The position numbers and the translations under genes are program-made. A stretch of 64,000 bases of DNA from Shigella phage Sf23: sequence record MF158046. One strand, 5' to 3'. This document shows positions 1,694-63,471 of this stretch, piece by piece (the stretch's first letter is position 1; each line of letters opens with the position of its first letter). A model generated the notes under the pieces. That model made no database searches, was not told the DNA's origin, and worked only from the letters and a program-made list of their open reading frames with translations.

Positions 1694-2212
1694 TTAATAA
1701 CCTCGGTCCTGACGTGCGAAATTTTCAGCATTTTTCAGGTAATAAAGTTTAAAGATTTCTTCAGCTGTAAGACCAAGACCCTGGAACATATTCAGAACGA
1801 AATGAAGAATATCAATCATTTCAAATTTAATTTCTAACTGGTCTTGCGGAGACAAATCAGTAATCAGAGTTTCACGACGCTCACCATGCTGCGACTTCCA
1901 AGGTTTCCATACAGCAGATGCGTCTTTTTCACCATTACTCATACCACCAAGAGAAGTCAGAAGTTCACGGAATTCATCGTCAATATAATCTTTCTGATTA
2001 CGCAACCAATCAACAACTTCACCGGCAGTAGCCAAGTCATCAGGATGACGATTATATTCAGGTTTATCTTTAGCTAAACGAATTTGCAGAGATTTCTGCA
2101 TGTCAAGCATTACCTGCAGCGGGTCTTTTTCATCACCGAGAATATCCCAATATTCATTTTGAGCTTTATCAGCGCCTTCGATCAGTTGACTACATTCGTT
2201 GAAATGTGGCAT
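1694..2212 (-). CDS. 56: dCTP pyrophosphatase (dCTPase/dUTPase) gp56
   Basis: 172 aa, matches T4 gp56 size and position between soc and 61; MazG-like acidic motifs (EFRELL, EEIFKLY). Confidence 0.9.
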   Translation of the reverse strand: MPHFNECSQLIEGADKAQNEYWDILGDEKDPLQVMLDMQKSLQIRLAKDKPEYNRHPDDLATAGEVVDWLRNQKDYIDDEFRELLTSLGGMSNGEKDASAVWKPWKSQHGERRETLITDLSPQDQLEIKFEMIDILHFVLNMFQGLGLTAEEIFKLYYLKNAENFARQDRGY

Positions 2213-2244
2213 GTTATTTTTCCTTTCAATTCATGGGTTAGTAG

Positions 2245-3678: not shown

Positions 3679-3724
3679 ATTAACCTCTATTCATAAAAGC
3701 ATTAAAAATTTGGTCATCAATAGA
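3676..3724 (-). repeat. 49-bp direct repeat copy A (gene 3' end + stop + next start)
   Basis: CATATTAACCTCTATTCATAAAAGCATTAAAAATTTGGTCATCAATAGA; 46/49 identical to copy B at 4034..4082. Confidence 0.9.
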
Positions 3725-4036
3725 TGGCACAGTAATATTTTCTGCATCATTTAGCAAATCATTAATTTCATCAGATAGCATAACACATGTGCCTTTATTT
3801 CCTGTAATTGTTACTGCACAATTACGAACGTTTTCTTTATCAAATTTTAGGTTAATATTTTCGTAGTGAAAATCCTTTAATGCCGAATATATCTTTAAAA
3901 TGAAATTGTCTTTTACTACAATAAACCCAACCTCACTATTAAAACGTGGTTCATGGAAACTGTAATAAACCTTTTCATCTATAAAATCGTATGAAATTTT
4001 TTCCATTTTTAAATATGAAAATTCAGAACTATACAT
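3680..4036 (-). CDS. hypothetical protein (118 aa), shares C-terminal tail with next gene
   Basis: ORF in the 61-41 accessory cluster; C-terminus SIDDQIFNAFMNRG encoded by a 49-bp repeat also found at the end of ORF 4038..4679. Confidence 0.55.
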   Translation of the reverse strand: MYSSEFSYLKMEKISYDFIDEKVYYSFHEPRFNSEVGFIVVKDNFILKIYSALKDFHYENINLKFDKENVRNCAVTITGNKGTCVMLSDEINDLLNDAENITVPSIDDQIFNAFMNRG

Positions 4037-8558: not shown

Positions 8559-9407
8559 TTAATCAACTGCTATTGGATGAATAGCATTAAACTTATGAAA
8601 TGCTTCTGATTTTTCTTTACGTGAAACGCACATGCGAAGAACCTTTAATGGCTCGTCTTCTTCACCCAACGATTTTCGTTTTTCAATATTCGACGTTTTC
8701 CAACGAGCTTGCTCTGGAAACTCTCTATTGATTTGCTCAAGCGCTCTATTATGTTTAGAATTACTACGAATTGAACTACACCCACCAGGAGCTTGCGCTT
8801 TTCCAGATACAACCAGATATTTGAACAAGGCCAAATGCGGATAACCTTGATTAATTAAATTGAGAAATGCATACATATCTTCGCACAAATCAATTTTTCC
8901 ATACCCAATTTGTTCTGTCGTAAGTTTTCCAAGGTCATACCATGTATTCGTGAATCCATATGAATTTTCACGATAATTACCCCAAGATGAAGTAATTTTA
9001 AAAATTGGTAGGCGAGCATGACCGTGATAATACCCGCAATCCATGGCATCTTCGACGTATTGAATCAATTCATAGAACTGTTCATGAGTCAATTGATTGA
9101 CTTTATCCACGCAACGACGGTCATCTCTTTTTCGCATTGAACTCATACGAATAGTAGTATCATCGTCAATCATCCAGATTCGTTGGCCTGCATACATATC
9201 AGTAATTGCTTTACGAGTACCGGCAATTCCATTTACGTCATCAGGAATAGTTATAATTTTAGCTCTAGACCCATAGGCATCATAATAAGCTTTTTCTTCA
9301 TGTTCACGCACTACAATATGGGGTTCATAATCAGTCGGAAACATATCAAGGGCAGAAACTGCCCCGACACGCTGATAACTTGGAATTACGAATTGAATCA
9401 TTTCCAC
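8559..9407 (-). CDS. DNA glycosyltransferase at the beta-gt locus (not T4 Bgt-like; T2/T6-type beta-glucosyl-HMC-alpha-glucosyltransferase is a candidate)
   Basis: 282 aa (T4 Bgt is 351 aa); DxD-type motif MIDDDTT; located between uvsX and 42 where T4 has beta-gt. Confidence 0.55.
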   Translation of the reverse strand: MEMIQFVIPSYQRVGAVSALDMFPTDYEPHIVVREHEEKAYYDAYGSRAKIITIPDDVNGIAGTRKAITDMYAGQRIWMIDDDTTIRMSSMRKRDDRRCVDKVNQLTHEQFYELIQYVEDAMDCGYYHGHARLPIFKITSSWGNYRENSYGFTNTWYDLGKLTTEQIGYGKIDLCEDMYAFLNLINQGYPHLALFKYLVVSGKAQAPGGCSSIRSNSKHNRALEQINREFPEQARWKTSNIEKRKSLGEEDEPLKVLRMCVSRKEKSEAFHKFNAIHPIAVD

Positions 9408-16305: not shown

Positions 16306-16992
16306 TTAAAAATCGTGGGTAGAATCAGCTTCAAGAGCTACTACATAATTCGCGTGTTCACCTTCAAATTTAGCAGCACCTTGTTTACCTTTTGCCCAGA
16401 GCAGAAGTTTATAATTTCCTGGTTGCATTTTCATATTTGCCATATTGATAATAAAATTAAATGTATTTTCACCATCATAATCACCAAGAGTCAAAGAATA
16501 TTTAACACGGGTCAGAGCAGAATCTTCTACTTTATTAAAACCGTTAATTACGATTTTACCTTCTTTTACCGTGATAGCAATTGTATCAATTTGCAGACCA
16601 CGAGATACACGCAACAGTTGTTGAAGGTCTTCAGCTTTAATTTCAGTAACAACAGATGCTACCGGGAATGGAATTGGTTTATTAGGAGCAACTACTGTAC
16701 TCGGATCGGCTGCTGGCCAAAAAATTGTTGAACGAGCATCAGCAATTTTAATATTACCATCTTCTGACTGGGAAATTTCTGCATCATCATTAACTAGAGA
16801 CAGAATACCGAGAAAACCGTTCAAATCGTAAATTGCTACATCAAAATCAATAACGTCAGAAATATTCGCTTCTGCATAAGTTGTACCATTAACCGCACGA
16901 GTCATAATAAATTGACCGGATTTAAGCATAATACCAGAGTTAATAGTAGCGAAATTTTTCAGCAGAGCAGTAGTATCTTTAGACAGTTTCAT
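16306..16992 (-). CDS. 45: sliding clamp gp45
   Basis: 228 aa as in T4 gp45; synteny 45-44-62. Confidence 0.92.
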   Translation of the reverse strand: MKLSKDTTALLKNFATINSGIMLKSGQFIMTRAVNGTTYAEANISDVIDFDVAIYDLNGFLGILSLVNDDAEISQSEDGNIKIADARSTIFWPAADPSTVVAPNKPIPFPVASVVTEIKAEDLQQLLRVSRGLQIDTIAITVKEGKIVINGFNKVEDSALTRVKYSLTLGDYDGENTFNFIINMANMKMQPGNYKLLLWAKGKQGAAKFEGEHANYVVALEADSTHDF

Positions 16993-17047
16993 GTAATTTC
17001 CTTCAATTCAAATGAGATTTAATTTTATAACTAATTTAATAAAGCAA

Positions 17048-17437
17048 TTAACGATTAAAATCAGCCGCAATTGTTTCCGCAACAATTTGAGCAGCAACAA
17101 TTAGACGTTCATCTGCATTACCGCAATAATCATCTTCTAAACGTTCACCACATGAAGTCATAATAAATTTAGCACCGGCGTTTAGGGATTCTGTAGTATG
17201 TTTGCGCATTAGTTCAATCCATTTATTACTTACTTCACGATCGATAGCTTCATAATACGCATGACGAGCAGGTGCAGATTTAATTTTGTTCTGAATAACT
17301 TCCATTGCGTTATCAGAAAGAGACAAAACCCATGCGCGACGAATTTTATTTTGGTTTTGTGGATTTGAGTCAGAACGCACGTGTTTTGGCTGAATATCTT
17401 TTACATCAACAGTATAATTCACAGTAATTTTAGTCAT
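17048..17437 (-). CDS. rpbA: RNA polymerase binding protein RpbA
   Basis: 129 aa as in T4; located between 46 and 45. Confidence 0.75.
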
Positions 17438-17446
17438 AATACACCT

Positions 17447-17635
17447 TTAGTCATAATAATCAGTAACAGTCCAAGCTTCATTTCTATTGGACATTATTTT
17501 TGTATATTCTGCTTTAAATGCATTCCTAAGCATAGATTCAGTAACTATATGCTCTTCATTAGAAAAATTATTTCTCAGAATATATCGTTTTATTTCAGGA
17601 ATAGTTAATAGATGCTGTCCAGTTGAATATTCCAT
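17447..17635 (-). CDS. hypothetical protein (45.2-position, 62 aa)
   Basis: Small ORF with MotA-box middle-promoter-like element upstream. Confidence 0.5.
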   Translation of the reverse strand: MEYSTGQHLLTIPEIKRYILRNNFSNEEHIVTESMLRNAFKAEYTKIMSNRNEAWTVTDYYD

Positions 17636-20993: not shown

Positions 20994-21016
20994 GCTAAAG
21001 GGCCGAAGCCCTTTAT
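20994..21016 (-). terminator. hairpin terminator after a-gt
   Basis: AAAGGGCTTCGGCCCTTT overlapping the a-gt stop. Confidence 0.55.
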
Positions 21017-22215
21017 TTTGTAATAATGTCAAACTGTTCTTTAAAGCAGAAGCTTGAATCTTGGTGCTGATACAAAAATTCATATGCTTTTTCTCGCTCA
21101 CGGTCATAAAGAGTTCGGTCAGATGACAGTTCTTTAATACGTTCAAATGTTGATTCCATGTCATTTTCATCAAACCAAATGATACCGCTATCATGCGAGG
21201 TCAAAGGAGTATTATCAACACGGAATTTTAAATTTTCGCCAGTAGATTTCCAAAATACTGGAATTGTTCCACATGCACCAAGCTCGAGATGAGTATATTC
21301 TAAAGAACGTTGTAGATATTTTTTATCCAACTTACTCAACTGATAACCAAAACCGGATTTACTCATACGTTCAAGCATTTCGCTATTTACATAACGGTCA
21401 AGAATTTGCGTTGGCAAATTAGGAGCAATTTTAATTTGGTCTACTTGATGAAGACGATAATACTCGTATGGAATTCCTTTTTCTTTAATAGGAATGAACG
21501 CTGGAGAACGTTCCAGACCTTCCATAATAGTACTTAGTCCTGCAGGTTTAAGATGTTTTTCGTGAAAATCAAACATCTGATAAAAACCTTTCCATGTAGT
21601 CGTACGACCAATCCAACGGTTGATATTCATGTTAATTTCAGAAACATCTTTCCAGTAAGTTGACCGAACCTTCGCAATATCCATAGGAGGCTGAAAGTTA
21701 TATACGGTCGGTGCTTCTTCAATATCATCAAACAGAGAAACAGTTTCTGGATACCACTCTTTCATCAGAACTTTATTAAAATCACCATTATCAGAATGGC
21801 TAAAAATAACATCAGCTCGACGAACAGTTTCTTCTAATCCCAAATTTCGACGCAAAGAAAGAGAAGAATGGTCATGTTGATAAACTACAACACGAACAGA
21901 AGGTTTAATGTTATCAATAATTTTTTTATAGTTATTAATAGTGTCTTCTTCAACCGAAGTAGCAGGAACTGAATTGATAATTAGAATATCACAATCATTT
22001 ACCAGCTTAAATGTTTTATCATATTCTTTTGCCAATAAAACCGGAATTGAAAATGATTTATAATCATGCGCGCAATTACGAGTAAATGATTTATCTTTAG
22101 CATAAACCAAAGTTACTTCATGACCATTTTTAATAAACCAATCACGTTGCTCGAGTGAGAATTTTGTTACACCACAACCTTCAAGACCTCGAGCCATAAA
22201 AATACATACTTTCAT
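21013..22215 (-). CDS. agt: DNA alpha-glucosyltransferase
   Basis: 400 aa as in T4 a-gt; N-terminus matches recalled T4 AGT (CIFMARGLEGCGVTKFSLEQRDWFIKNGH). Confidence 0.9.
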   Translation of the reverse strand: MKVCIFMARGLEGCGVTKFSLEQRDWFIKNGHEVTLVYAKDKSFTRNCAHDYKSFSIPVLLAKEYDKTFKLVNDCDILIINSVPATSVEEDTINNYKKIIDNIKPSVRVVVYQHDHSSLSLRRNLGLEETVRRADVIFSHSDNGDFNKVLMKEWYPETVSLFDDIEEAPTVYNFQPPMDIAKVRSTYWKDVSEINMNINRWIGRTTTWKGFYQMFDFHEKHLKPAGLSTIMEGLERSPAFIPIKEKGIPYEYYRLHQVDQIKIAPNLPTQILDRYVNSEMLERMSKSGFGYQLSKLDKKYLQRSLEYTHLELGACGTIPVFWKSTGENLKFRVDNTPLTSHDSGIIWFDENDMESTFERIKELSSDRTLYDREREKAYEFLYQHQDSSFCFKEQFDIITK

Positions 22216-26557: not shown

Positions 26558-27028
26558 TTAATCATGTTTCCACACCCCATCGGTATTTGACCAAAGTCGC
26601 TGATTATCTGATCCTCGCCACAGCTTTTTAGTCGGAAGATTTTTCTCATACTTCCCATCAATAATAACATCAACATATTTAAGCATTTCTAGTTGTTTAA
26701 TATCTTCAAACTTATATCCTGTCCACAACCAAATGCTTTTATTGGGATAAAGATTTTTTACTGTTTGAACCACAGAGTGAATCACGTCTCTGTTATCAGG
26801 ATAAAGAGGGTCACCTCCGGTTATAGTTAATCCTTCTATATAATCATTATTCAAACATTCAATTAATTGTTCTAGTGTTTCACCAGTGAATGGAATACCA
26901 TTTCTAGCATTCCATGTTGATTTATTATAACACCCTTCGCATTTATGCAAACAACCTGTAACGAAAAGAACGACCCTGCATCCAGGGCCATTCACAAAAT
27001 CGCAAGGATAAAATCTATCATAATTCAT
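26558..27028 (-). CDS. nrdG: anaerobic ribonucleotide reductase activating protein NrdG (radical SAM)
   Basis: 156 aa as in T4; Cys cluster CLHKCEGC. Confidence 0.9.
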   Translation of the reverse strand: MNYDRFYPCDFVNGPGCRVVLFVTGCLHKCEGCYNKSTWNARNGIPFTGETLEQLIECLNNDYIEGLTITGGDPLYPDNRDVIHSVVQTVKNLYPNKSIWLWTGYKFEDIKQLEMLKYVDVIIDGKYEKNLPTKKLWRGSDNQRLWSNTDGVWKHD

Positions 27029-28842
27029 TGGTGTTTAACCCTATGCATGATTTCTTTATTTTTACCGAGATTAAATCCGCGTTCGTTCGGATTTCCCAAA
27101 TAACCACATGTTCTTCTTATTGTGTTCATCTTTTTAGGATCAGTTTCTCCACAAATAGAACAAACAAATCCGTTTTCAGTAGGAGTCATTTCATGGGTAC
27201 TTCCACACGTAAAACATTTATCTACTGGCATATTAACACCAAAATAATCTAAATGTTGTGCAGCATAATCCCATACGGCCTCAAGACCCTTTAAGTTATT
27301 TTTCATATCAGGAAGTTCAACATAAGAAATGTGACCACCTGTCGCAATGAAATGATATGGCGCTTCACGAGAAATCTTTTCAAACGGAGTAATATTTTCT
27401 TCTACTGAAACATGGAAACTGTTAGTGTACCAGCCTTTATCGGTAACATCTTTTACGCTTCCATATTTTTCTGTATCGAGTTTACAGAAGCGATAGCAGA
27501 GGTTTTCAGCAGGAGTCGAATATAAACTAAAAGCAAATCCGGTTCTTTCAGTCCACTGTTTAAGATGAGCATTCATTTTAGTTAAAATTTCTTGTCCAAT
27601 ATCACGACCGACAAGAATATTTAATTCGTGAATACCAATGTATCCTAGGGACACTGAACTTCTACCGTTTTTAAATAACTCAATTATGTCATCGTCAGGT
27701 TTAAGACGAACCCCGAATGCACCTTCTTGGTAAAGAATAGGAGCAACAGTTGCTTTAACTCCTTTTAAGGAACTAATTCTACACATCAAAGCTTCAAAAC
27801 ATAAATCCATTCGTTCATTGAACAATTCAACAAATTTCTGTTCATTGAATTGTGTTCCAATATAAGAATCTAATGCAATACGAGGAAGATTCAGTGTTAC
27901 AACGCCAAGATTATTACGTCCATCAAGAATTTCATTACCAGTCGAATCTTTCCATACGCTCAAGAAACTGCGGCAACCCATTGGAGAAACAGGAATAGAT
28001 GAACCTGTGATAGCTTTATTGTTCTTAGCTGAAATAATATCAGGATACATTCTTTTGCTTGCACACTCTAGAGCAAGCTGCTTAATATCATAGTTCGGAT
28101 CGTCTTTATAAAGATTAACACCTTCTTCAACGAACATAACAAGCTTAGGGAAAATAGGAGTTATCCCATCGCGACCAAGGCCTTTAATACGATTTTTCAG
28201 AATTGCTTTCTGAATCATTCGTTCAGTCCAGTCAGTTCCCGTGCCAAATGTAATTGTTACAAAAGGCGTTTGTCCATTTGAACTAAAGAGAGTATTTACT
28301 TCATATTCATAAGCTTGGAACGCATCGTATACGTCTTTTTCTGTTTTAGATTGGGCATAATTCAACGCATCAGCGATTTGCCATTTTTCTGCATCCTCAA
28401 TATGTTTTGCATAGGTGCGTTTAACATAAGGAGAAAGTACTTTATCTACATTAGCAAAAGTCGTTCCGCCATATTGATGGGAAGCAACTTGCGCAGTAAT
28501 TTGTGCCATAATTGCAGTAGCAACGCCAATTGATTTAGGAGTTTCAATCTGTGCATTACCAAGCTTAAATCCGTTCTCAAGCATTCCTTTTAAATCTACT
28601 AAACAGCAATTAGTAAATGGAAGAGCAGGGGAATAATCAATATCATGGAAATGAATAATTCCGCTTTCATGCGCTTTCATAATAAAAGACGGGACCATAT
28701 TTTTGGCAATGTGTTTAGACACAATACCAGCCATAAGGTCCCGTTGAGTTGGAAAAACACGAGAATCTTTATTAGCATTCTCGTTTAAAAGGTCTTTATT
28801 AGTTTTATGAATCAATCCTTCAATTTCTTTTTCAATTGTCAT
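27025..28842 (-). CDS. nrdD: anaerobic ribonucleoside-triphosphate reductase NrdD, uninterrupted
   Basis: 605 aa continuous ORF; C-terminal zinc ribbon CFTCGS...CSICG and glycyl-radical motif RTCGYLG. Confidence 0.95.
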   Translation of the reverse strand: MTIEKEIEGLIHKTNKDLLNENANKDSRVFPTQRDLMAGIVSKHIAKNMVPSFIMKAHESGIIHFHDIDYSPALPFTNCCLVDLKGMLENGFKLGNAQIETPKSIGVATAIMAQITAQVASHQYGGTTFANVDKVLSPYVKRTYAKHIEDAEKWQIADALNYAQSKTEKDVYDAFQAYEYEVNTLFSSNGQTPFVTITFGTGTDWTERMIQKAILKNRIKGLGRDGITPIFPKLVMFVEEGVNLYKDDPNYDIKQLALECASKRMYPDIISAKNNKAITGSSIPVSPMGCRSFLSVWKDSTGNEILDGRNNLGVVTLNLPRIALDSYIGTQFNEQKFVELFNERMDLCFEALMCRISSLKGVKATVAPILYQEGAFGVRLKPDDDIIELFKNGRSSVSLGYIGIHELNILVGRDIGQEILTKMNAHLKQWTERTGFAFSLYSTPAENLCYRFCKLDTEKYGSVKDVTDKGWYTNSFHVSVEENITPFEKISREAPYHFIATGGHISYVELPDMKNNLKGLEAVWDYAAQHLDYFGVNMPVDKCFTCGSTHEMTPTENGFVCSICGETDPKKMNTIRRTCGYLGNPNERGFNLGKNKEIMHRVKHQ

Positions 28843-29312
28843 TTTAAACTCTTTCTAAGCTGCTTCTTAAATGAAGCTATTAATTGTGTTTTAGTGTCAG
28901 ATTCATTATATTCAAATCCTCTTTGAAGCATCTCAGCCATCATTTCCTCTTTTCCTAAACGAGAAAATTCCTTTGATTTATCTCCAACAAAGTTAGGATG
29001 AATATTATTTTGGGTGTAATCGGATTTTAAATAAGTAAGTAAATTTTCTAACCATTCAAGATAATCAACACCTTGCCCCTTTAAGCCAGAACGATTAAAT
29101 TTATGTTTCATTTGACCTTCTGCGGCATTGCAGAGATTACAAAGCAATCCACGCACCTTTCCTGCTTTTGGTCCATTTAATTCATGGTCATGATCAAGAT
29201 GATTAGCTTGAACATCAGGATTTAGTTCTCGTTGGCAAATTAAGCATTTACCGTTTTGTGCATCATAAAATTTCTGTTTTTCTTCTTTGTATAATTTGCC
29301 AGTCAATAACAT
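28839..29312 (-). CDS. 49: endonuclease VII (Holliday junction resolvase) gp49
   Basis: 157 aa as in T4; zinc and His-Me motifs (CLICQ...HLDHDHE...CNLCN). Confidence 0.92.
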   Translation of the reverse strand: MLLTGKLYKEEKQKFYDAQNGKCLICQRELNPDVQANHLDHDHELNGPKAGKVRGLLCNLCNAAEGQMKHKFNRSGLKGQGVDYLEWLENLLTYLKSDYTQNNIHPNFVGDKSKEFSRLGKEEMMAEMLQRGFEYNESDTKTQLIASFKKQLRKSLK

Positions 29313-38061: not shown

Positions 38062-39075
38062 TCATTTATAATAACTTCGGTGGTTTTCAAGATAGACCTT
38101 CTCAAGGAAGTCATCCCAGAAACCCATGTCTACTTTTTGCTGCATACCGTTCTTAGAAGCTTCAGTAGATGCTGCTTCTACTTGATCGACCACATCTTCC
38201 AAAAACTCTTGAACTGTTTTAAATGGATGTTTACCCAACTTCACGTCGAGAATAAATGGAGCATCTTGGAGTGGATAAACCAAGTCACCAGTTTTGTAAA
38301 TTTCCAATAGTTGGAGTCCACCACGACAAGCATGACTCAGAGCTTTCCAGTCAATGCCTTCATTAGCTTCGGCTTTACGAGCACGTTCACCATATTCAGC
38401 ATCTAATTTATTCAGTGACTGCTTAAGCTCAATAAGAGAAAGTGTTGTCTGATATTTACGACCCAACACAGTGTAGAACGTTTGCGGGCCTGTTTTCTCG
38501 TGATTATGGAACACCCATTCACAGAATTCGTTTTCTGGAAGACGATGCTTAATATCTTCAACTTTAGTACGACGTTGCTTAATGGAACCGTCTTCTTGAT
38601 AATCAACCCACTGATCGGGGATTTGATTAACTACTTTCAATACATCGCGTAATGCAGCCAAACGAGAACCTTTAACACCATATTTAGAGGCTTGTTTACG
38701 AACATATCCTAAATAGGATTTCATGTTAGTCGTATAAAAACGAGAACGGTTGTCTTGAATAAACTTCCACACATCAGGCAAATCAGATTTAACCACCAGT
38801 TCAGGCGGAGTGTGAAGCATATCCAATGCTACAGTTTCACCATCTGCTGCTAATTTAAAGAAATATTTAAGACTGTATAGTTCATGGTCAATATCATCTT
38901 TAGTGTTTTTAGATGATGTGTTGTTGGTGTTTTTACTCATGTGCTCTTTGACATTTCCGATAAGAATATCGCGAGCAGGAGGAACAAAGATTTCTTTAAA
39001 ATCTACATCAGATTCTGGAGTAGAAGTTCCATAAAGATGACTACCAAAATAACTTTTCATTACTGTTTTCATCAT
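38062..39075 (-). CDS. predicted nucleotidyltransferase-fold protein (337 aa)
   Basis: N-terminal GSHLYGTSTPESDVDF fits the pol-beta-like NTase signature G[SG]...D.D; remainder helical. Confidence 0.5.
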   Translation of the reverse strand: MMKTVMKSYFGSHLYGTSTPESDVDFKEIFVPPARDILIGNVKEHMSKNTNNTSSKNTKDDIDHELYSLKYFFKLAADGETVALDMLHTPPELVVKSDLPDVWKFIQDNRSRFYTTNMKSYLGYVRKQASKYGVKGSRLAALRDVLKVVNQIPDQWVDYQEDGSIKQRRTKVEDIKHRLPENEFCEWVFHNHEKTGPQTFYTVLGRKYQTTLSLIELKQSLNKLDAEYGERARKAEANEGIDWKALSHACRGGLQLLEIYKTGDLVYPLQDAPFILDVKLGKHPFKTVQEFLEDVVDQVEAASTEASKNGMQQKVDMGFWDDFLEKVYLENHRSYYK

Positions 39076-39533
39076 TCAGCCTTATATTCAATAACAGGAC
39101 ATACTTTAGCTTTACGAGCTTTTAAAAATTCAACGATAATCGATTTCTTGGGTTGAATAGGAGGTAAACCTTTATACGCCCTATCAATATTTTCTACGTG
39201 TAAAGCATAATCCTTTTTCCATTTATAATCTTTATATTTTTCACGCAAATGTGCAGGAATAACAAATGAACCGATAATAAGTAAAACAACCAAAAGCGCA
39301 AGTATAAATGATGATGGAAGCAAAGTCCATAAACTGCCAAAAATAAACCAACGCTGTAGGCTTTCTGCACAAATAATTGTTAGTCCTACGAGTATAGCAC
39401 ATCCAAAAATAGAAACGAAAAATGTAGGAATAACAATAGACCAAAAATACGCGCATAGTGTCTTAGGTCGTTGCCATTCATCGTTAAACAATTTGAATAA
39501 TTTATAGTGCCAAGAGTTTTCATTAATAATCAT
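39072..39533 (-). CDS. membrane protein (153 aa)
   Basis: Multiple TM helices; stop overlaps the NTase-fold ORF start. Confidence 0.5.
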   Translation of the reverse strand: MIINENSWHYKLFKLFNDEWQRPKTLCAYFWSIVIPTFFVSIFGCAILVGLTIICAESLQRWFIFGSLWTLLPSSFILALLVVLLIIGSFVIPAHLREKYKDYKWKKDYALHVENIDRAYKGLPPIQPKKSIIVEFLKARKAKVCPVIEYKAE

Positions 39534-39535
39534 AA

Positions 39536-40057
39536 TTATCCTTTCATTGAAGGCGTAACGGTTGTTAAATACTTAATCATAGCTTCAGCTTCTGATTTTG
39601 ATAATGAAATTTCTTCATTGTTTTGACGAATAGAAATAAAATCCGGATGACGGTCACCACCAGCTTTTAAAACACACATATAAGTATCAACTTCGCCTTC
39701 AATATTTGAAATGATTGAAGCAGTTCCGCATGAATGTGGTTTTTGATAAATCAATACAGCTTTTCTTCCACCGTTTGACTGTTCATAGGCTTTTAATACA
39801 TCAAGCAAATCAGTTCTTTTATCAATAGCTAAAATGTTATTTTCATCTTCAATGTTAAATCCTTCGGATACTTCATAAAGTGTTACCCATAAATCACCGA
39901 TGTCAATAACAGCATTTACTTTTCCACGACTTTCAAGAGTATGACAAATTTTCTTGATTTCGTCATAACTCATTTTAATAATATCATCTCCTTGACTAAG
40001 GAAGATGTCATTTTTAAATTCAACACGAATTAAACCGCTTCCACTTGAAATAAACAT
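39536..40057 (-). CDS. hypothetical protein, paralog pair member (173 aa)
   Basis: Shares SIRQ and C-terminal KYLTTVTPSM motifs with ORF 40064..40618. Confidence 0.5.
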   Translation of the reverse strand: MFISSGSGLIRVEFKNDIFLSQGDDIIKMSYDEIKKICHTLESRGKVNAVIDIGDLWVTLYEVSEGFNIEDENNILAIDKRTDLLDVLKAYEQSNGGRKAVLIYQKPHSCGTASIISNIEGEVDTYMCVLKAGGDRHPDFISIRQNNEEISLSKSEAEAMIKYLTTVTPSMKG

Positions 40058-48359: not shown

Positions 48360-48833
48360 TTATTTGAACGATTTAACGTACTGAATAGAACCCTTACTAT
48401 TCACAAAGGCAATTTTACCATTTTTATTATACATGGTAGCAGTACGCTGATAACCATAGGTTTGTTTACCAGATTGATAACCAACTAATGCAAAATTATC
48501 TTCACCCATTTTATTCTGTTTAGCGCGAATGCGTTCATGACCATGTGCCATAAGAACCTTAGCATCACCAGTTGCAATGGATCGACGAGTTTTTTCATCT
48601 TCAACTGCATTAACAAAGTCGTCAAATGAATCAAATTTAGCATGAGATTTATTATACAATTTTCCATCTACTGCATAATTATATCCCTGTACATCCATTT
48701 CAACTTCTGTACCATCATCCAATACAGCAGTAATTTTTTGACCTTTTTTAAATTTCAAAAGATCAGTAAAAGATTCAGCAATAATTTGAGAATTAATAGC
48801 TGCTTCAGTGATAAATTCTTGATATGTTTTCAT
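48360..48833 (-). CDS. internal-protein-like capsid protein with capsid targeting sequence (157 aa)
   Basis: N-terminus MKTYQEFITE matches T4 IP capsid-targeting consensus with I-x-E prohead-protease site; basic body. Confidence 0.6.
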   Translation of the reverse strand: MKTYQEFITEAAINSQIIAESFTDLLKFKKGQKITAVLDDGTEVEMDVQGYNYAVDGKLYNKSHAKFDSFDDFVNAVEDEKTRRSIATGDAKVLMAHGHERIRAKQNKMGEDNFALVGYQSGKQTYGYQRTATMYNKNGKIAFVNSKGSIQYVKSFK

Positions 48834-49318: not shown

Positions 49319-50287
<969 letters not shown>

Positions 50288-53854: not shown

Positions 53855-54328
53855 TTATTTGATTTGTTTAGCAGACCAAATGCGGTCTTTAATAATTTTT
53901 TGAATGTCTTCAACATACTCAAGAGAGTGAGCATGTGGGTTATCTTTGAAACTATAAGCACGAGCTAGTTTTTGGCCTTCAGTTTTGATTACTAAAAGCT
54001 CTTTAAGGATAGCTTCATATTTGGAGATAATTCCTTTAACGATATTTTTCTCTTGTGTGACTTTAGGATCTGCTTTAGGAGCAGGTTTACCCGAAGCCTT
54101 TGCAAAAGCAGCGCCAGTAGCAACTAAACTTTTCCAGGCCATACTAACTGCATTTCCCGTAAATCCTTCCGCTTTCATGTCACGTGCGAACTGGAATCGT
54201 GATTCATCAGAAGCATCTTTGTAAGAATATTTACCCGCTGCAATGGCTGCTTTTGCGACAGCTTGAATTTCGGTGCTAGACGCTTCATTTAACACCGCTT
54301 CATTTAAAAATTGAGTATATGATTTCAT
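53855..54328 (-). CDS. internal-protein-like capsid protein with capsid targeting sequence (157 aa)
   Basis: N-terminus MKSYTQFLNE (CTS-like, L-x-E site); own late promoter (54365..54372) and flanking twin terminators. Confidence 0.6.
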   Translation of the reverse strand: MKSYTQFLNEAVLNEASSTEIQAVAKAAIAAGKYSYKDASDESRFQFARDMKAEGFTGNAVSMAWKSLVATGAAFAKASGKPAPKADPKVTQEKNIVKGIISKYEAILKELLVIKTEGQKLARAYSFKDNPHAHSLEYVEDIQKIIKDRIWSAKQIK

Positions 54329-54718: not shown

Positions 54719-54794
54719 TGGTCGAGGCAGTAGGGATCGAACCTACGACCTAGGACTTAGAAGGTCCTTGCTCTTCCTTCTGAGCTATGCCTCG
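54719..54794 (-). tRNA. tRNA-Arg (anticodon UCU)
   Basis: Hand-folded cloverleaf: acceptor CGAGGCA/TGCCTCG, anticodon loop CTTCTAA, T-loop GGTTCGATCC, CCA encoded. Confidence 0.8.
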
Positions 54795-54798
54795 TATT

Positions 54799-54873
54799 TG
54801 GCGGACGTGATAGGATTCGAACCTATAACCAATCGCTTAACAGGCGATCGCTCTGCCATTGAGCTACACATCC
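54799..54873 (-). tRNA. tRNA-Asn (anticodon GUU)
   Basis: Hand-folded: acceptor GGATGTG/CACGTCC, anticodon stem ATCGC/GCGAT with loop CTGTTAA, T-loop GGTTCGAATCC, CCA encoded. Confidence 0.75.
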
Positions 54874-54877
54874 AAAT

Positions 54878-54964
54878 TGGTGGGGAGTGATGGAGTCGAA
54901 CCACCCGAGTCGCAATGACAATGGATTTACAGTCCACACCGCTACCTCTACGGGATAACTCCCC
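54878..54964 (-). tRNA. tRNA-Tyr (anticodon GUA), class II with long variable arm
   Basis: Hand-folded: acceptor GGGGAGT/ACTCCCC, anticodon loop CTGTAAA, long variable arm GTCATTGCGACTCGG, T-loop TTCGACT, CCA encoded; resembles E. coli tRNA-Tyr. Confidence 0.75.
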
Positions 54965-54976
54965 TAATTCATAATT

Positions 54977-55051
54977 TGGTGGCCCTGGGTGGAATTGAAC
55001 CACCATCTGGCGATTATGAGTCGCTTGCTTGAACCTTCCAGCTACAGGGCC
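54977..55051 (-). tRNA. tRNA with CAU anticodon (Ile2/Met type; T4 tRNA-Ile position)
   Basis: Hand-folded: acceptor GGCCCTG/CAGGGCC, anticodon loop CTCATAA, T-loop GGTTCAATTCC, CCA encoded; 1 nt from tRNA-Thr. Confidence 0.75.
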
Positions 55052-55052
55052 T

Positions 55053-55128
55053 TGGTGCTGATTGACGGAATCGAACCGCCGACCTTCTCATTACAAGTGA
55101 GTTGCTCTACCTACTGAGCTAAATCAGC
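55053..55128 (-). tRNA. tRNA-Thr (anticodon UGU)
   Basis: Acceptor GCTGATT/AATCAGC, anticodon loop CTTGTAA, T-loop GGTTCGATTCC, CCA encoded. Confidence 0.8.
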
Positions 55129-55133
55129 AAAAC

Positions 55134-55223
55134 TGGCGGAGGCGATAGGATTTGAACCTATGAGTCGCCGGAGCGACTGCCGGTTTTCAAGACCGGTGCA
55201 TTAAACCACTCTGCCACGCCTCC
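55134..55223 (-). tRNA. tRNA-Ser (anticodon UGA), class II
   Basis: Acceptor GGAGGCG/CGCCTCC, anticodon loop CTTGAAA, long variable arm, T-loop GGTTCAAATCC, CCA encoded. Confidence 0.8.
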
Positions 55224-55225
55224 AG

Positions 55226-55299
55226 TCTCCATACAAGGATTTGAACCTTGGACCTCCTGATCCCAAATCAGGCGCTCTACCAAACTGAGCTACACGGAG
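55226..55299 (-). tRNA. tRNA-Pro (anticodon UGG)
   Basis: Acceptor CTCCGTG/TATGGAG, anticodon loop TTTGGGA, T-loop GGTTCAAATCC; no encoded CCA; 2 nt from tRNA-Ser. Confidence 0.8.
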
Positions 55300-55309
55300 T
55301 AAATTAAAT

Positions 55310-55383
<74 letters not shown>

Positions 55384-55388
55384 AAATT

Positions 55389-55475
55389 TGGTGCGAGAAG
55401 TGGGACTCGAACCCACAAGGAAATCATTCCGCAGCATTTTAAGTGCTGTGCCTTTACCAATTTGACCATTCTCGC
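55389..55475 (-). tRNA. tRNA-Leu (anticodon UAA), class II
   Basis: Acceptor GCGAGAA/TTCTCGC, anticodon loop CTTAAAA, long variable arm, T-loop GGTTCGAGTCC, CCA encoded. Confidence 0.8.
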
Positions 55476-55476
55476 G

Positions 55477-55549
55477 CTGGGAATAAAGGACTCGAACCTT
55501 TGCATCCTGGAATCAAAATCCAGTGCCTTACCAACTTGGCTAATTCCCA
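55477..55549 (-). tRNA. tRNA-Gln (anticodon UUG)
   Basis: Acceptor TGGGAAT/ATTCCCA, anticodon loop TTTTGAT, T-loop GGTTCGAGTCC; no encoded CCA; 1 nt from tRNA-Leu. Confidence 0.8.
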
Positions 55550-57084: not shown

Positions 57085-57342
57085 TTATTTTAAATCTTCT
57101 AATCGTTTCTTCATCTTAGAACCATTTTTAGCGATTTCTCCTGCGTCAGAGCATAATGCTAAAAGTGCTTTAACTTTAGTTTGGTCTCCTTTAAAAGACG
57201 AAGGATCGACTGCAGCAGCAAGTTCTTTAATACGAGAGAAAAGACGCTCAGCTTCAGCTAAAGCCATTCCAAGCTTTACTTCCATACCATGAGAAGATTC
57301 AGTGATAATAGTTTCTGTAGCAAACTCTTTATAAGTTTTCAT
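57085..57342 (-). CDS. internal-protein-like capsid protein at the ipI locus (85 aa)
   Basis: N-terminus MKTYKEFATETIITE (CTS-like, I-x-E site); adjacent to 57B where T4 carries ipI. Confidence 0.6.
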   Translation of the reverse strand: MKTYKEFATETIITESSHGMEVKLGMALAEAERLFSRIKELAAAVDPSSFKGDQTKVKALLALCSDAGEIAKNGSKMKKRLEDLK

Positions 57343-61439: not shown

Positions 61440-63471
61440 TAACCTCAATTGGTTTGTTGGTGTTGTTGAAGATAGAATGGACCCATTGAAATTAGGTCGT
61501 GTTCGTGTTCGTGTTGTTGGTCTGCATCCACCTCAAAGAGCACAAGGTGATGTAATGGGTATTCCAACTGAAAAATTACCATGGATGTCAGTTATTCAAC
61601 CTATAACTTCTGCAGCAATGTCTGGAATTGGAGGCTCCGTTACTGGACCGGTAGAAGGAACTAGAGTTTATGGTCATTTTTTAGACAAATGGAAAACCAA
61701 CGGAATTGTTCTTGGCACGTATGGTGGAATAGTTCGCGAAAAACCGAATAGACTTGAAGGATTTTCTGATCCAACTGGACAATATCCTAGACGTTTAGGA
61801 AATGATACTAACGTACTAAACCAAGGCGGAGAAGTAGGATATGATTCGTCTTCTAACGTTATCCAAGATAGTAACTTAGACACCGCAATAAATCCCGATG
61901 ATAGACCACTATCAGAGATTCCAACTGATGATAATCCAAATATGTCAATGGCTGAAATGCTTCGCCGTGATGAAGGATTAAGACTAAAAGTTTATTGGGA
62001 TACTGAAGGATATCCGACAATTGGTATTGGTCATCTTATCATGAAACAGCCAGTTCGTGATATGGCTCAAATTAATAAAGTTTTATCAAAACAAGTTGGT
62101 CGTGAAATTACTGGAAATCCAGGTTCTATTACAATGGAAGAAGCGGTAACTTTATTTGAACGTGATTTAGCTGATATGCAACGTGACATTAAATCACATT
62201 CTAAAGTAGGACCAGTCTGGCAAGCTGTCAACCGTTCTCGTCAAATGGCATTAGAAAATATGGCATTTCAGATGGGTGTTGGCGGTGTAGCTAAATTTAA
62301 CACAATGTTAACTGCTATGTTAGCAGGAGATTGGGAAAAAGCATATAAAGCTGGTCGTGATTCGTTGTGGTATCAACAAACAAAAGGCCGTGCATCCCGT
62401 GTTACCATGATTATTCTTACCGGAAATTTGGAATCATATGGTATTGAAGTTAAAACACCAGCTAGGTCTTTGTCGGCAATGGCTGCTACTGTGGCGAAGT
62501 CTTCTGATCCAGCTGACCCTCCTATTCCAAATGACTCAAGAATTTTATTCAAAGAACCAGTTTCTTCATATAAAGGCGAATATCCGTATGTTCACACAAT
62601 GGAAACTGAAAGCGGTCATATTCAGGAATTTGATGATACCCCTGGGCAAGAACGATATAGATTAGTTCATCCAACTGGAACTTATGAAGAAGTATCACCG
62701 TCAGGAAGAAGAACAAGAAAAACTGTCGATAATTTGTATGATATAACCAACGCTGATGGTAATTTTTTGGTAGCCGGCGATAAAAAGACTAACGTCGGTG
62801 GATCAGAAATTTATTACAACATGGATAATCGTCTTCACCAAATAGATGGAAGCAATACGATATTTGTGCGTGGAGATGAAACTAAGACAGATAAAGGCGA
62901 ATATCCGTATGTTCACACAATGGAAACTGAAAGCGGTCATATTCAGGAATTTGATGATACCCCTGGGCAAGAACGATATAGATTAGTTCATCCAACTGGA
63001 ACTTATGAAGAAGTATCACCGTCAGGAAGAAGAACAAGAAAAACTGTCGATAATTTGTATGATATAACCAACGCTGATGGTAATTTTTTGGTAGCCGGCG
63101 ATAAAAAGACTAACGTCGGTGGATCAGAAATTTATTACAACATGGATAATCGTCTTCACCAAATAGATGGAAGCAATACGATATTTGTGCGTGGAGATGA
63201 AACTAAGACAGTTGAAGGTAATGGAACTATCCTAGTTAAAGGTAATGTTACTATTGTAGTTGAAGGTAATGCTGACATTACAGTTAAAGGAGATGCTACC
63301 ACTTTAGTTGAAGGAAATCAAACTAATACAGTAAATGGAAATCTTTCTTGGAAAGTTGCTGGGACAGTTGATTGGGACGTTGGTGGTGATTGGACAGAAA
63401 AAATGGCATCTATGAGTTCTATTTCATCTGGTCAATACACAATTGATGGATCGAGGATTGACATTGGCTAA
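61423..63471 (+). CDS. 5: gp5 baseplate hub/tail lysozyme with internal 107-aa tandem duplication
   Basis: 682 aa vs 575 aa in T4; OB domain, lysozyme domain similar to gpe (EGLRLKVYWDTEGYPTIGIGHL), C-terminal VxGxxxxx beta-helix repeats; exact 321-bp tandem repeat accounts for the extra length. Confidence 0.9.
   Translation: MEMISNNLNWFVGVVEDRMDPLKLGRVRVRVVGLHPPQRAQGDVMGIPTEKLPWMSVIQPITSAAMSGIGGSVTGPVEGTRVYGHFLDKWKTNGIVLGTYGGIVREKPNRLEGFSDPTGQYPRRLGNDTNVLNQGGEVGYDSSSNVIQDSNLDTAINPDDRPLSEIPTDDNPNMSMAEMLRRDEGLRLKVYWDTEGYPTIGIGHLIMKQPVRDMAQINKVLSKQVGREITGNPGSITMEEAVTLFERDLADMQRDIKSHSKVGPVWQAVNRSRQMALENMAFQMGVGGVAKFNTMLTAMLAGDWEKAYKAGRDSLWYQQTKGRASRVTMIILTGNLESYGIEVKTPARSLSAMAATVAKSSDPADPPIPNDSRILFKEPVSSYKGEYPYVHTMETESGHIQEFDDTPGQERYRLVHPTGTYEEVSPSGRRTRKTVDNLYDITNADGNFLVAGDKKTNVGGSEIYYNMDNRLHQIDGSNTIFVRGDETKTDKGEYPYVHTMETESGHIQEFDDTPGQERYRLVHPTGTYEEVSPSGRRTRKTVDNLYDITNADGNFLVAGDKKTNVGGSEIYYNMDNRLHQIDGSNTIFVRGDETKTVEGNGTILVKGNVTIVVEGNADITVKGDATTLVEGNQTNTVNGNLSWKVAGTVDWDVGGDWTEKMASMSSISSGQYTIDGSRIDIG
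62570..63211 (+). repeat. perfect tandem direct duplication, 2 x 321 bp, inside gene 5
   Basis: 62570..62890 is base-for-base identical to 62891..63211; in frame (107 codons); junction encodes ...RGDETKT-DKGEYPYV... Confidence 0.95.

Follow-up and report, generated by a model that had tools for sequence, protein, structure and literature searches.

The nrdD gene of phage T4, also named sunY, is split by a group I intron that encodes the homing endonuclease I-TevII, and its counterpart in the 64,000-nt stretch of DNA analysed here (hereafter, the window) reads as a single open reading frame. This raises the question of whether the gene truly lacks the intron, and whether it is then a potential target for intron homing in mixed infection. 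We found an intact gene with an empty insertion site and a target sequence that differs from that of T4 at several silent positions, a pattern which appears to be the rule among related phages.

An uninterrupted nrdD gene

The gene for the large subunit of class III (anaerobic) ribonucleotide reductase, nrdD, occupies positions 27025-28842 on the minus strand. The open reading frame list gives it, exactly as originally predicted, as one continuous frame that starts with ATG and encodes 605 aa, and the Pfam matches and the colinearity with T4 agree with this assignment. Residues 21-604 match the NRDD family (PF13597, E=1.9e-171), and the C-terminus matches Gly_radical (PF01228, E=1.2e-25). Against the spliced T4 gene the alignment is gap-free, with 60 of 1818 nt differing (96.7% exon identity) and three of the 605 amino acids changed (V65F, V283I and R417Q). 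C79, C290, N311, G580 and the C-terminal Cys4 of T4 NrdD are identical and stand at the same positions. In T4 numbering, we take G580 to be the radical glycine, C79, C290 and N311 to be active-site residues, and the Cys4 to be a metal site.

Directly downstream lies nrdG (26558-27028, minus strand; Pfam Fer4_12, 7e-49, and Radical_SAM), which encodes the radical-SAM activase of NrdD. The nrdG start and the nrdD stop overlap by 4 nt, and the position that mobC holds in T4 is therefore empty in the window. Directly upstream is gene 49 (28839-29312, minus strand), the gene of endonuclease VII, a Holliday junction resolvase (Pfam Endonuclease_7, PF02945, 5.4e-22; Endonuc-dimeris, 1.5e-33), whose product matches T4 gp49 with E=1.6e-107 in phmmer; pin follows further upstream. 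A full-length NRDD domain, a glycyl-radical domain, the catalytic residues and an adjoining NrdG are all present, and the gene is a full member of the class III NrdD family, closest in kind to T2 nrdD.

A megablast search with nrdD matched 1002 phage records, with a best identity of 97.7% and T2 at 97.5%. With 691 of these records at 90-99% identity, the window is, judged by its sequence, part of a T-even-type phage (Tequatrovirus) that is distinct from T4 and identical to none of the records searched. For the 25-kb piece from 20001 to 45000, the best relatives reach 97.2-97.3% identity.

The intron and its empty insertion site

The T4 gene has 2851 nt in two pieces with I-TevII inside, and an Rfam scan recognizes the group I intron within it (Intron_gpI, RF00028, 105 bits). 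The window gene aligns without gaps to nt 1-536 and 1572-2851 of T4 nrdD. When the T4 splice junction is set by the group I rule, according to which exon 1 ends with T and the intron with G, it falls after nt 538; exon 1 then comprises nt 1-538 and exon 2 nt 539-1818 in spliced numbering, and the intron is 1033 nt long. By this alignment and junction reconstruction, the empty insertion site is located between 28304 and 28305 on the minus strand, homologous to the boundary between T4 nt 538 and 539 and within codon 180.

The same Rfam scan, applied at the gathering threshold to the 64-kb window, detected no group I intron, ten tRNAs being the only matches. Together with the gap-free T4 alignment, this rules out a hidden intron in nrdD. 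The original prediction of an intron-less gene thus holds, the 605-aa frame being colinear with spliced T4 NrdD throughout.

How unusual is this state? The T4 intron sequence occurs in 27 records, nearly whole in 25 of them, chiefly strains of T4 and phages very close to it. Carriers make up about 4% of the 691 T-even-level nrdD records (at least 90% identity). Intron-less nrdD is the default in T-even phages and T4 is the exception. The claim that the missing intron marks the phage as T4-distinct is therefore correct in that the phage is not T4, but the intron-less gene itself is unremarkable, with the intron in only 25 versus about 690 records. That T4-type introns are present in only some T-even phages has been noted before (PMC2988022). 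The nrdD sequences AY262139-AY262146 from earlier T-even comparative studies are among our matches. Earlier work between 1989 and 2004, by Quirk, by Bell-Pedersen, and by Sandegren and Sjoberg, reportedly described that the T4 introns are unevenly distributed, that exon differences cluster where introns insert, and that co-conversion occurs. The underlying biology is already known, and the present counts widen its basis to about 1000 sequenced phages.

Homing endonuclease genes

The window corresponds in gene order to T4 14047-80215, a stretch in which T4 carries the homing endonuclease genes segF, segA, mobB, mobC, I-TevII, mobD and segB. It ends where segC of T4 begins, and the comparison of these genes spans T4 14047-80215. 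All seven T4 genes in this syntenic stretch fall in gaps of the window alignment; for mobC, the T4 segment 42916-43518 is without a counterpart.

Protein searches gave the same result. When the T4 homing endonuclease proteins were compared by phmmer with six-frame window segments of at least 25 aa, the best match had E=0.57, which is noise, as against 1.6e-107 for the gp49 control; the I-TevII protein reached no better than E=1.6 in the six-frame translation. Across all six frames of the window, GIY-YIG and HNH profiles built from the T4 homing endonuclease domains gave only matches with E=1.8 or worse, the best for the GIY-YIG profile being E=2.9, compared with 3.8e-30 for I-TevII as the T4 control. 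The same profiles recovered nine of nine such genes in T4 14-80 kb, including a 37-aa mobA fragment (3e-13). In the segments without a T4 DNA match, no endonuclease was found by Pfam and/or PHROGs among 21 of the 27 main minus-strand ORFs.

Several candidates were considered and set aside. The weak phmmer and hmmsearch matches (E 0.57-10) were regarded as noise, given that controls score 1e-13 to 1e-56. A loose-motif match, HHILP, in a 49-aa plus-strand fragment (49884-50030) was dismissed as lacking HNH profile support. A different homing endonuclease gene in place of those of T4 at the mobD, segA, segB and segF sites was rejected from the identities of the occupants, as assigned for the mobD, segA and segB sites; the occupant of the segF site is a 46-aa ORF.

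The original prediction that no GIY-YIG or HNH ORFs occur in the window is consequently upheld for homing endonucleases by synteny, phmmer and profiles, but not in its literal form, since the gp49 endonuclease VII has an HNH-related catalytic motif. This enzyme is a junction resolvase with an HNH-related motif and not a homing endonuclease. A homing endonuclease built on the Endo VII motif has been described (PMC6083498). T4 is an outlier among T-even phages in its number of homing endonuclease genes (PMC2988022), and T2 has been named as a phage with few of them (PMC10448857). That the window phage, like most of its T-even relatives, has few or no such genes matters little on its own.

The I-TevII target site

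The 30-bp stretch homologous to the I-TevII recognition sequence (-10 to +20 relative to the insertion site) lies at 28285-28314 on the minus strand, and 23 of its 30 bp equal the T4 exon junction. In T4, the junction reads GCTTATGAGT before and ATGAAGTGAACACGTTATTC after the insertion site; in the window, the corresponding halves are GCTTATGAAT and ATGAAGTAAATACTCTCTTT. The 60-bp sequence of the window-type site is TCCAAGCTTATGAATATGAAGTAAATACTCTCTTTAGTTCAAATGGACAAACGCCTTTTG. The seven mismatches, at -2, +8, +11, +14, +15, +17 and +20, are all synonymous, and with 7 of 30 bp deviating from the T4 junction the recognition sequence is, in the strict sense, not intact. I-TevII reportedly cuts 13-15 nt downstream of the insertion site (+13/+15; Bell-Pedersen et al. 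in 1990), so that the mismatches at +14 and +15 would presumably fall at the cleavage position and two of the changes in the window would lie on the cut itself. The enzyme has a long recognition sequence, which it binds in the minor groove (PMC2988022).

The mismatches belong to the densest cluster of differences from T4 in the whole gene. Ten synonymous substitutions are packed into 40 nt at 28267-28306 on the minus strand (-2 to +38), namely at window positions 28306, 28297, 28294, 28291, 28290, 28288, 28285, 28276, 28270 and 28267, compared with a gene-wide difference of 3.3%. In permutations that kept codon-position classes, ten differences in any 40-nt segment were seen in 0 of 20,000 runs (p<5e-5), and in the -2 to +38 segment itself in 0 of 200,000. 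The T4 intron sequence upstream of the I-TevII ORF visibly resembles the homing site, a resemblance that says nothing on the cutting of the window variant.

Distribution of the two site types

To judge which of the two haplotypes is the odd one, we compared four intron carriers with about 30 intron-less genes at the level of single bases and assessed the other records by identity bands. The window 60-mer (-15 to +45) is matched at 95% or more in 559 records. The best full-length, and hence intron-less, matches of the T4 junction 60-mer are those of ESCO47 (95%), SG1 (93.3%) and Shinka (90%); the remaining full-length matches do not exceed 88.3% among the matches listed, and 855 records lie in the 80-90% band. 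An un-invaded exact T4 junction sequence was not found in the 50,697 phage records searched, and near-matches were few.

Intron-less T2, RB69 and 20 IMG/VR contigs agree with the window at -2 and +14 and depart from T4 at +8 and +17, and all but one of them also agree with the window at +11; ESCO47 is the exception among the intron-less nrdD genes aligned with this set. The intron-less genes with window-type bases extend to genera at only 78% protein identity. In T4, U5, EC128 and a G8-like contig, the T4 states occur together with the intron. Across all 1818 positions, the four intron carriers and 11 intron-less genes have no base in common at exactly -2, +8, +14, +15, +17 and +20. The by-product of this comparison is a haplotype of six synonymous sites, extending over the insertion and cleavage sites, to which the nrdD intron is tied.

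By these comparisons, the variant of T4 is the odd one and that of the window the common allele. Because distant genera share its states at -2, +11 and +14, the window-type site also appears to be ancestral.

Intron and haplotype are not strictly linked, because a T4-type tract, whole or in part, also occurs without the intron in three phages. The intron-less Salmonella phage SG1 carries all of the T4-type exon tract, with three private synonymous changes at -16, -10 and -7, and the intron-less phages ESCO47 (Mosigvirus) and Shinka carry part of it. Such tracts may have been left behind by intron loss, or they may be rare sites of the T4 type that were never invaded.

Origin of the exon cluster

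We infer that the cluster in T4 arose by exon co-conversion, and give a probability of roughly 0.85 to the reading in which the window nrdD is an ordinary, never-invaded allele that represents the recipient side of this process. I-TevII would cut a recipient nrdD, the cut ends would be resected and then repaired from an intron-bearing donor copy, and the intron would enter together with a short stretch of donor exon. The synonymous cluster of T4 would then be donor sequence that travelled with the intron, and the window would retain the original sequence. Homing is known to come with co-conversion of flanking exons (PMC2988022).

The other intron carriers fit this course of events. Their exons diverge from T4 by 2.9% (U5), 5% (EC128) and 7% (the G8-like contig), yet all three equal T4 from at least -67 to +31 despite the divergence elsewhere, and the introns of the carriers are 99.2-100% identical. 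The nearest intron-less relative of the G8-like exons, contig L027, has a window-type site. The same intron occurs in no fewer than three divergent nrdD backgrounds, the intron-less relatives of which have the window-type site. On this reading, alleles of the window type have repeatedly been invaded in nature, and the window nrdD could therefore be a recipient as well. T2, which has the same site, reportedly received introns from T4 in crosses (Quirk et al. in 1989; Sandegren and Sjoberg in 2004).

The same silent differences could have another cause. If the window-type site were a resistance allele, its synonymous changes would have been selected to block cleavage by I-TevII, and nrdD would be immune instead of a target. 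Such selection might produce just what the site displays, with 7 of 30 bp altered and all changes synonymous, including +14/+15 at the reported cleavage position; the sharing of the -2, +11 and +14 states by distant genera gives the site an ancestral look, however, and not that of a recent escape. The intron is rare although the window allele is abundant, and the 50,697 phage records hold almost no T4-sequence sites that lack the intron, as would be expected under resistance, but an intron of at least 99.2% identity, found with short T4-identical tracts in three exon backgrounds that diverge from one another, points to successful invasion, as do the crosses in which T2 with the same site was reportedly the recipient. 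We therefore consider a resistance allele unlikely. A common nrdD allele that is largely refractory to I-TevII, which would leave the T4 intron stranded with almost no cleavable targets, likewise has only a small chance of being correct; if true, it would explain why so few of the sequenced T-even nrdD genes, about 4%, contain the intron.

Precise loss of an intron formerly present in the lineage, which would make the intron-less state secondary, is very improbable: the T4-type tracts without intron in SG1 (full) and in ESCO47 and Shinka (partial) indicate that loss or recombinational removal may happen, but the window has no intron-linked base at any of -2, +8, +11, +14, +15, +17 and +20, its site equals the T2 and RB69 sites from -2 to +20, and Rfam finds no intron remnant in it.

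For the never-invaded recipient allele, which we thus prefer, it is plausible that the window nrdD is a putative target for intron homing, as the original prediction had proposed. In a mixed infection with T4, the window allele would be the recipient, and the efficiency would be set by how far I-TevII tolerates the 7 mismatches in 30 bp. The cleavability of the site is something we infer from the invasion of similar alleles, and the rarity of the intron among sequenced phages could mean that the window allele is a poor I-TevII substrate. In principle, the intron could also have spread by ordinary homologous recombination and not by cleavage-driven homing, which would leave a similar picture near the intron. 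The haplotype picture as a whole is one of textbook co-conversion, and it poses the question of how much target variation I-TevII tolerates.

Other differences from T4 in the window

Beyond nrdD, the window departs from T4 at several loci. The dam gene (T4 16846-17625) has no counterpart: about 20 bp at 2254-2275 stand between gene 56 and sequence that matches T4 upstream of gene 61, and the T4 Dam protein has no match in the six-frame translation of the window. Gene 56 (dCTPase; 1697-2230, minus strand) shows about 75% DNA identity to T4, compared with about 96% elsewhere, and the adjoining segF is absent. Gene 56 is the known SegF target in T2, and in a cross with T4 this locus would therefore probably undergo exclusion. 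A 118-aa ORF that is not in T4 (3680-4036, minus strand) aligns with Pfam AdfA (anti-DarT factor A, 9e-8) over the C-terminal half of the family and is a distant paralog of the adjoining gene 61.2.

The segA and beta-glucosyltransferase genes of T4 are replaced at 8559-9407 (minus strand) by a gene for a 282-aa beta-glucosyl-HMC-alpha-glucosyltransferase (phrog_842, 2e-89; Pfam TAGT), which presumably stands for DNA glucosylation of the T2/T6 type; at 21016-22215 the window retains the alpha-glucosyltransferase. At the mobD site (39072-40057, minus strand), the window encodes a 153-aa predicted membrane protein (phrog_944) and a 173-aa y05I-like protein (PF24449/PF24448), neither of them an endonuclease, the latter being a distant paralog of mobD.1. 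The tRNA cluster at 54719-55549 (minus strand) comprises ten genes (Arg, Asn, Tyr, Met/Ile-CAT, Thr, Ser, Pro, Gly, Leu and Gln), compared with eight in T4, and tRNA-Asn and tRNA-Tyr occupy the position of T4 segB.

For IpI, IpII and IpIII, the internal proteins of T4, the window encodes no homologs. Three minus-strand ORFs (48360-48833, 53855-54328 and 57085-57342) start with the motif MK(T/S)Y..F, which is typical of capsid-targeted internal proteins, and the first of them matches phrog_3155 (internal virion protein). In gene 5, two BLAST segments at window 62888-62897 cover the same stretch of about 330 nt in T4 (79103-79433), which suggests a deletion or register shift of about 330 nt relative to T4.

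Comparison with T2 and T4

The window shares with T4 the local gene order, with gene 49 upstream and nrdG downstream of nrdD, and an NrdD protein that is only 3 aa apart. Unlike the window, T4 has a 1033-nt intron with the GIY-YIG endonuclease I-TevII in nrdD, and mobC between nrdD and nrdG. T2 resembles the window more closely. Its nrdD (NC_054931, 40845-42662) likewise encodes 605 aa without an intron, at 97.5% nt identity to the window, is followed by nrdG without an intervening mobC and has gene 49 directly upstream. The two genes differ by about 2.5% of nucleotides, scattered along their length, and around the insertion site they are identical from -16 to +28, the nearest differences standing at -17 and +29.
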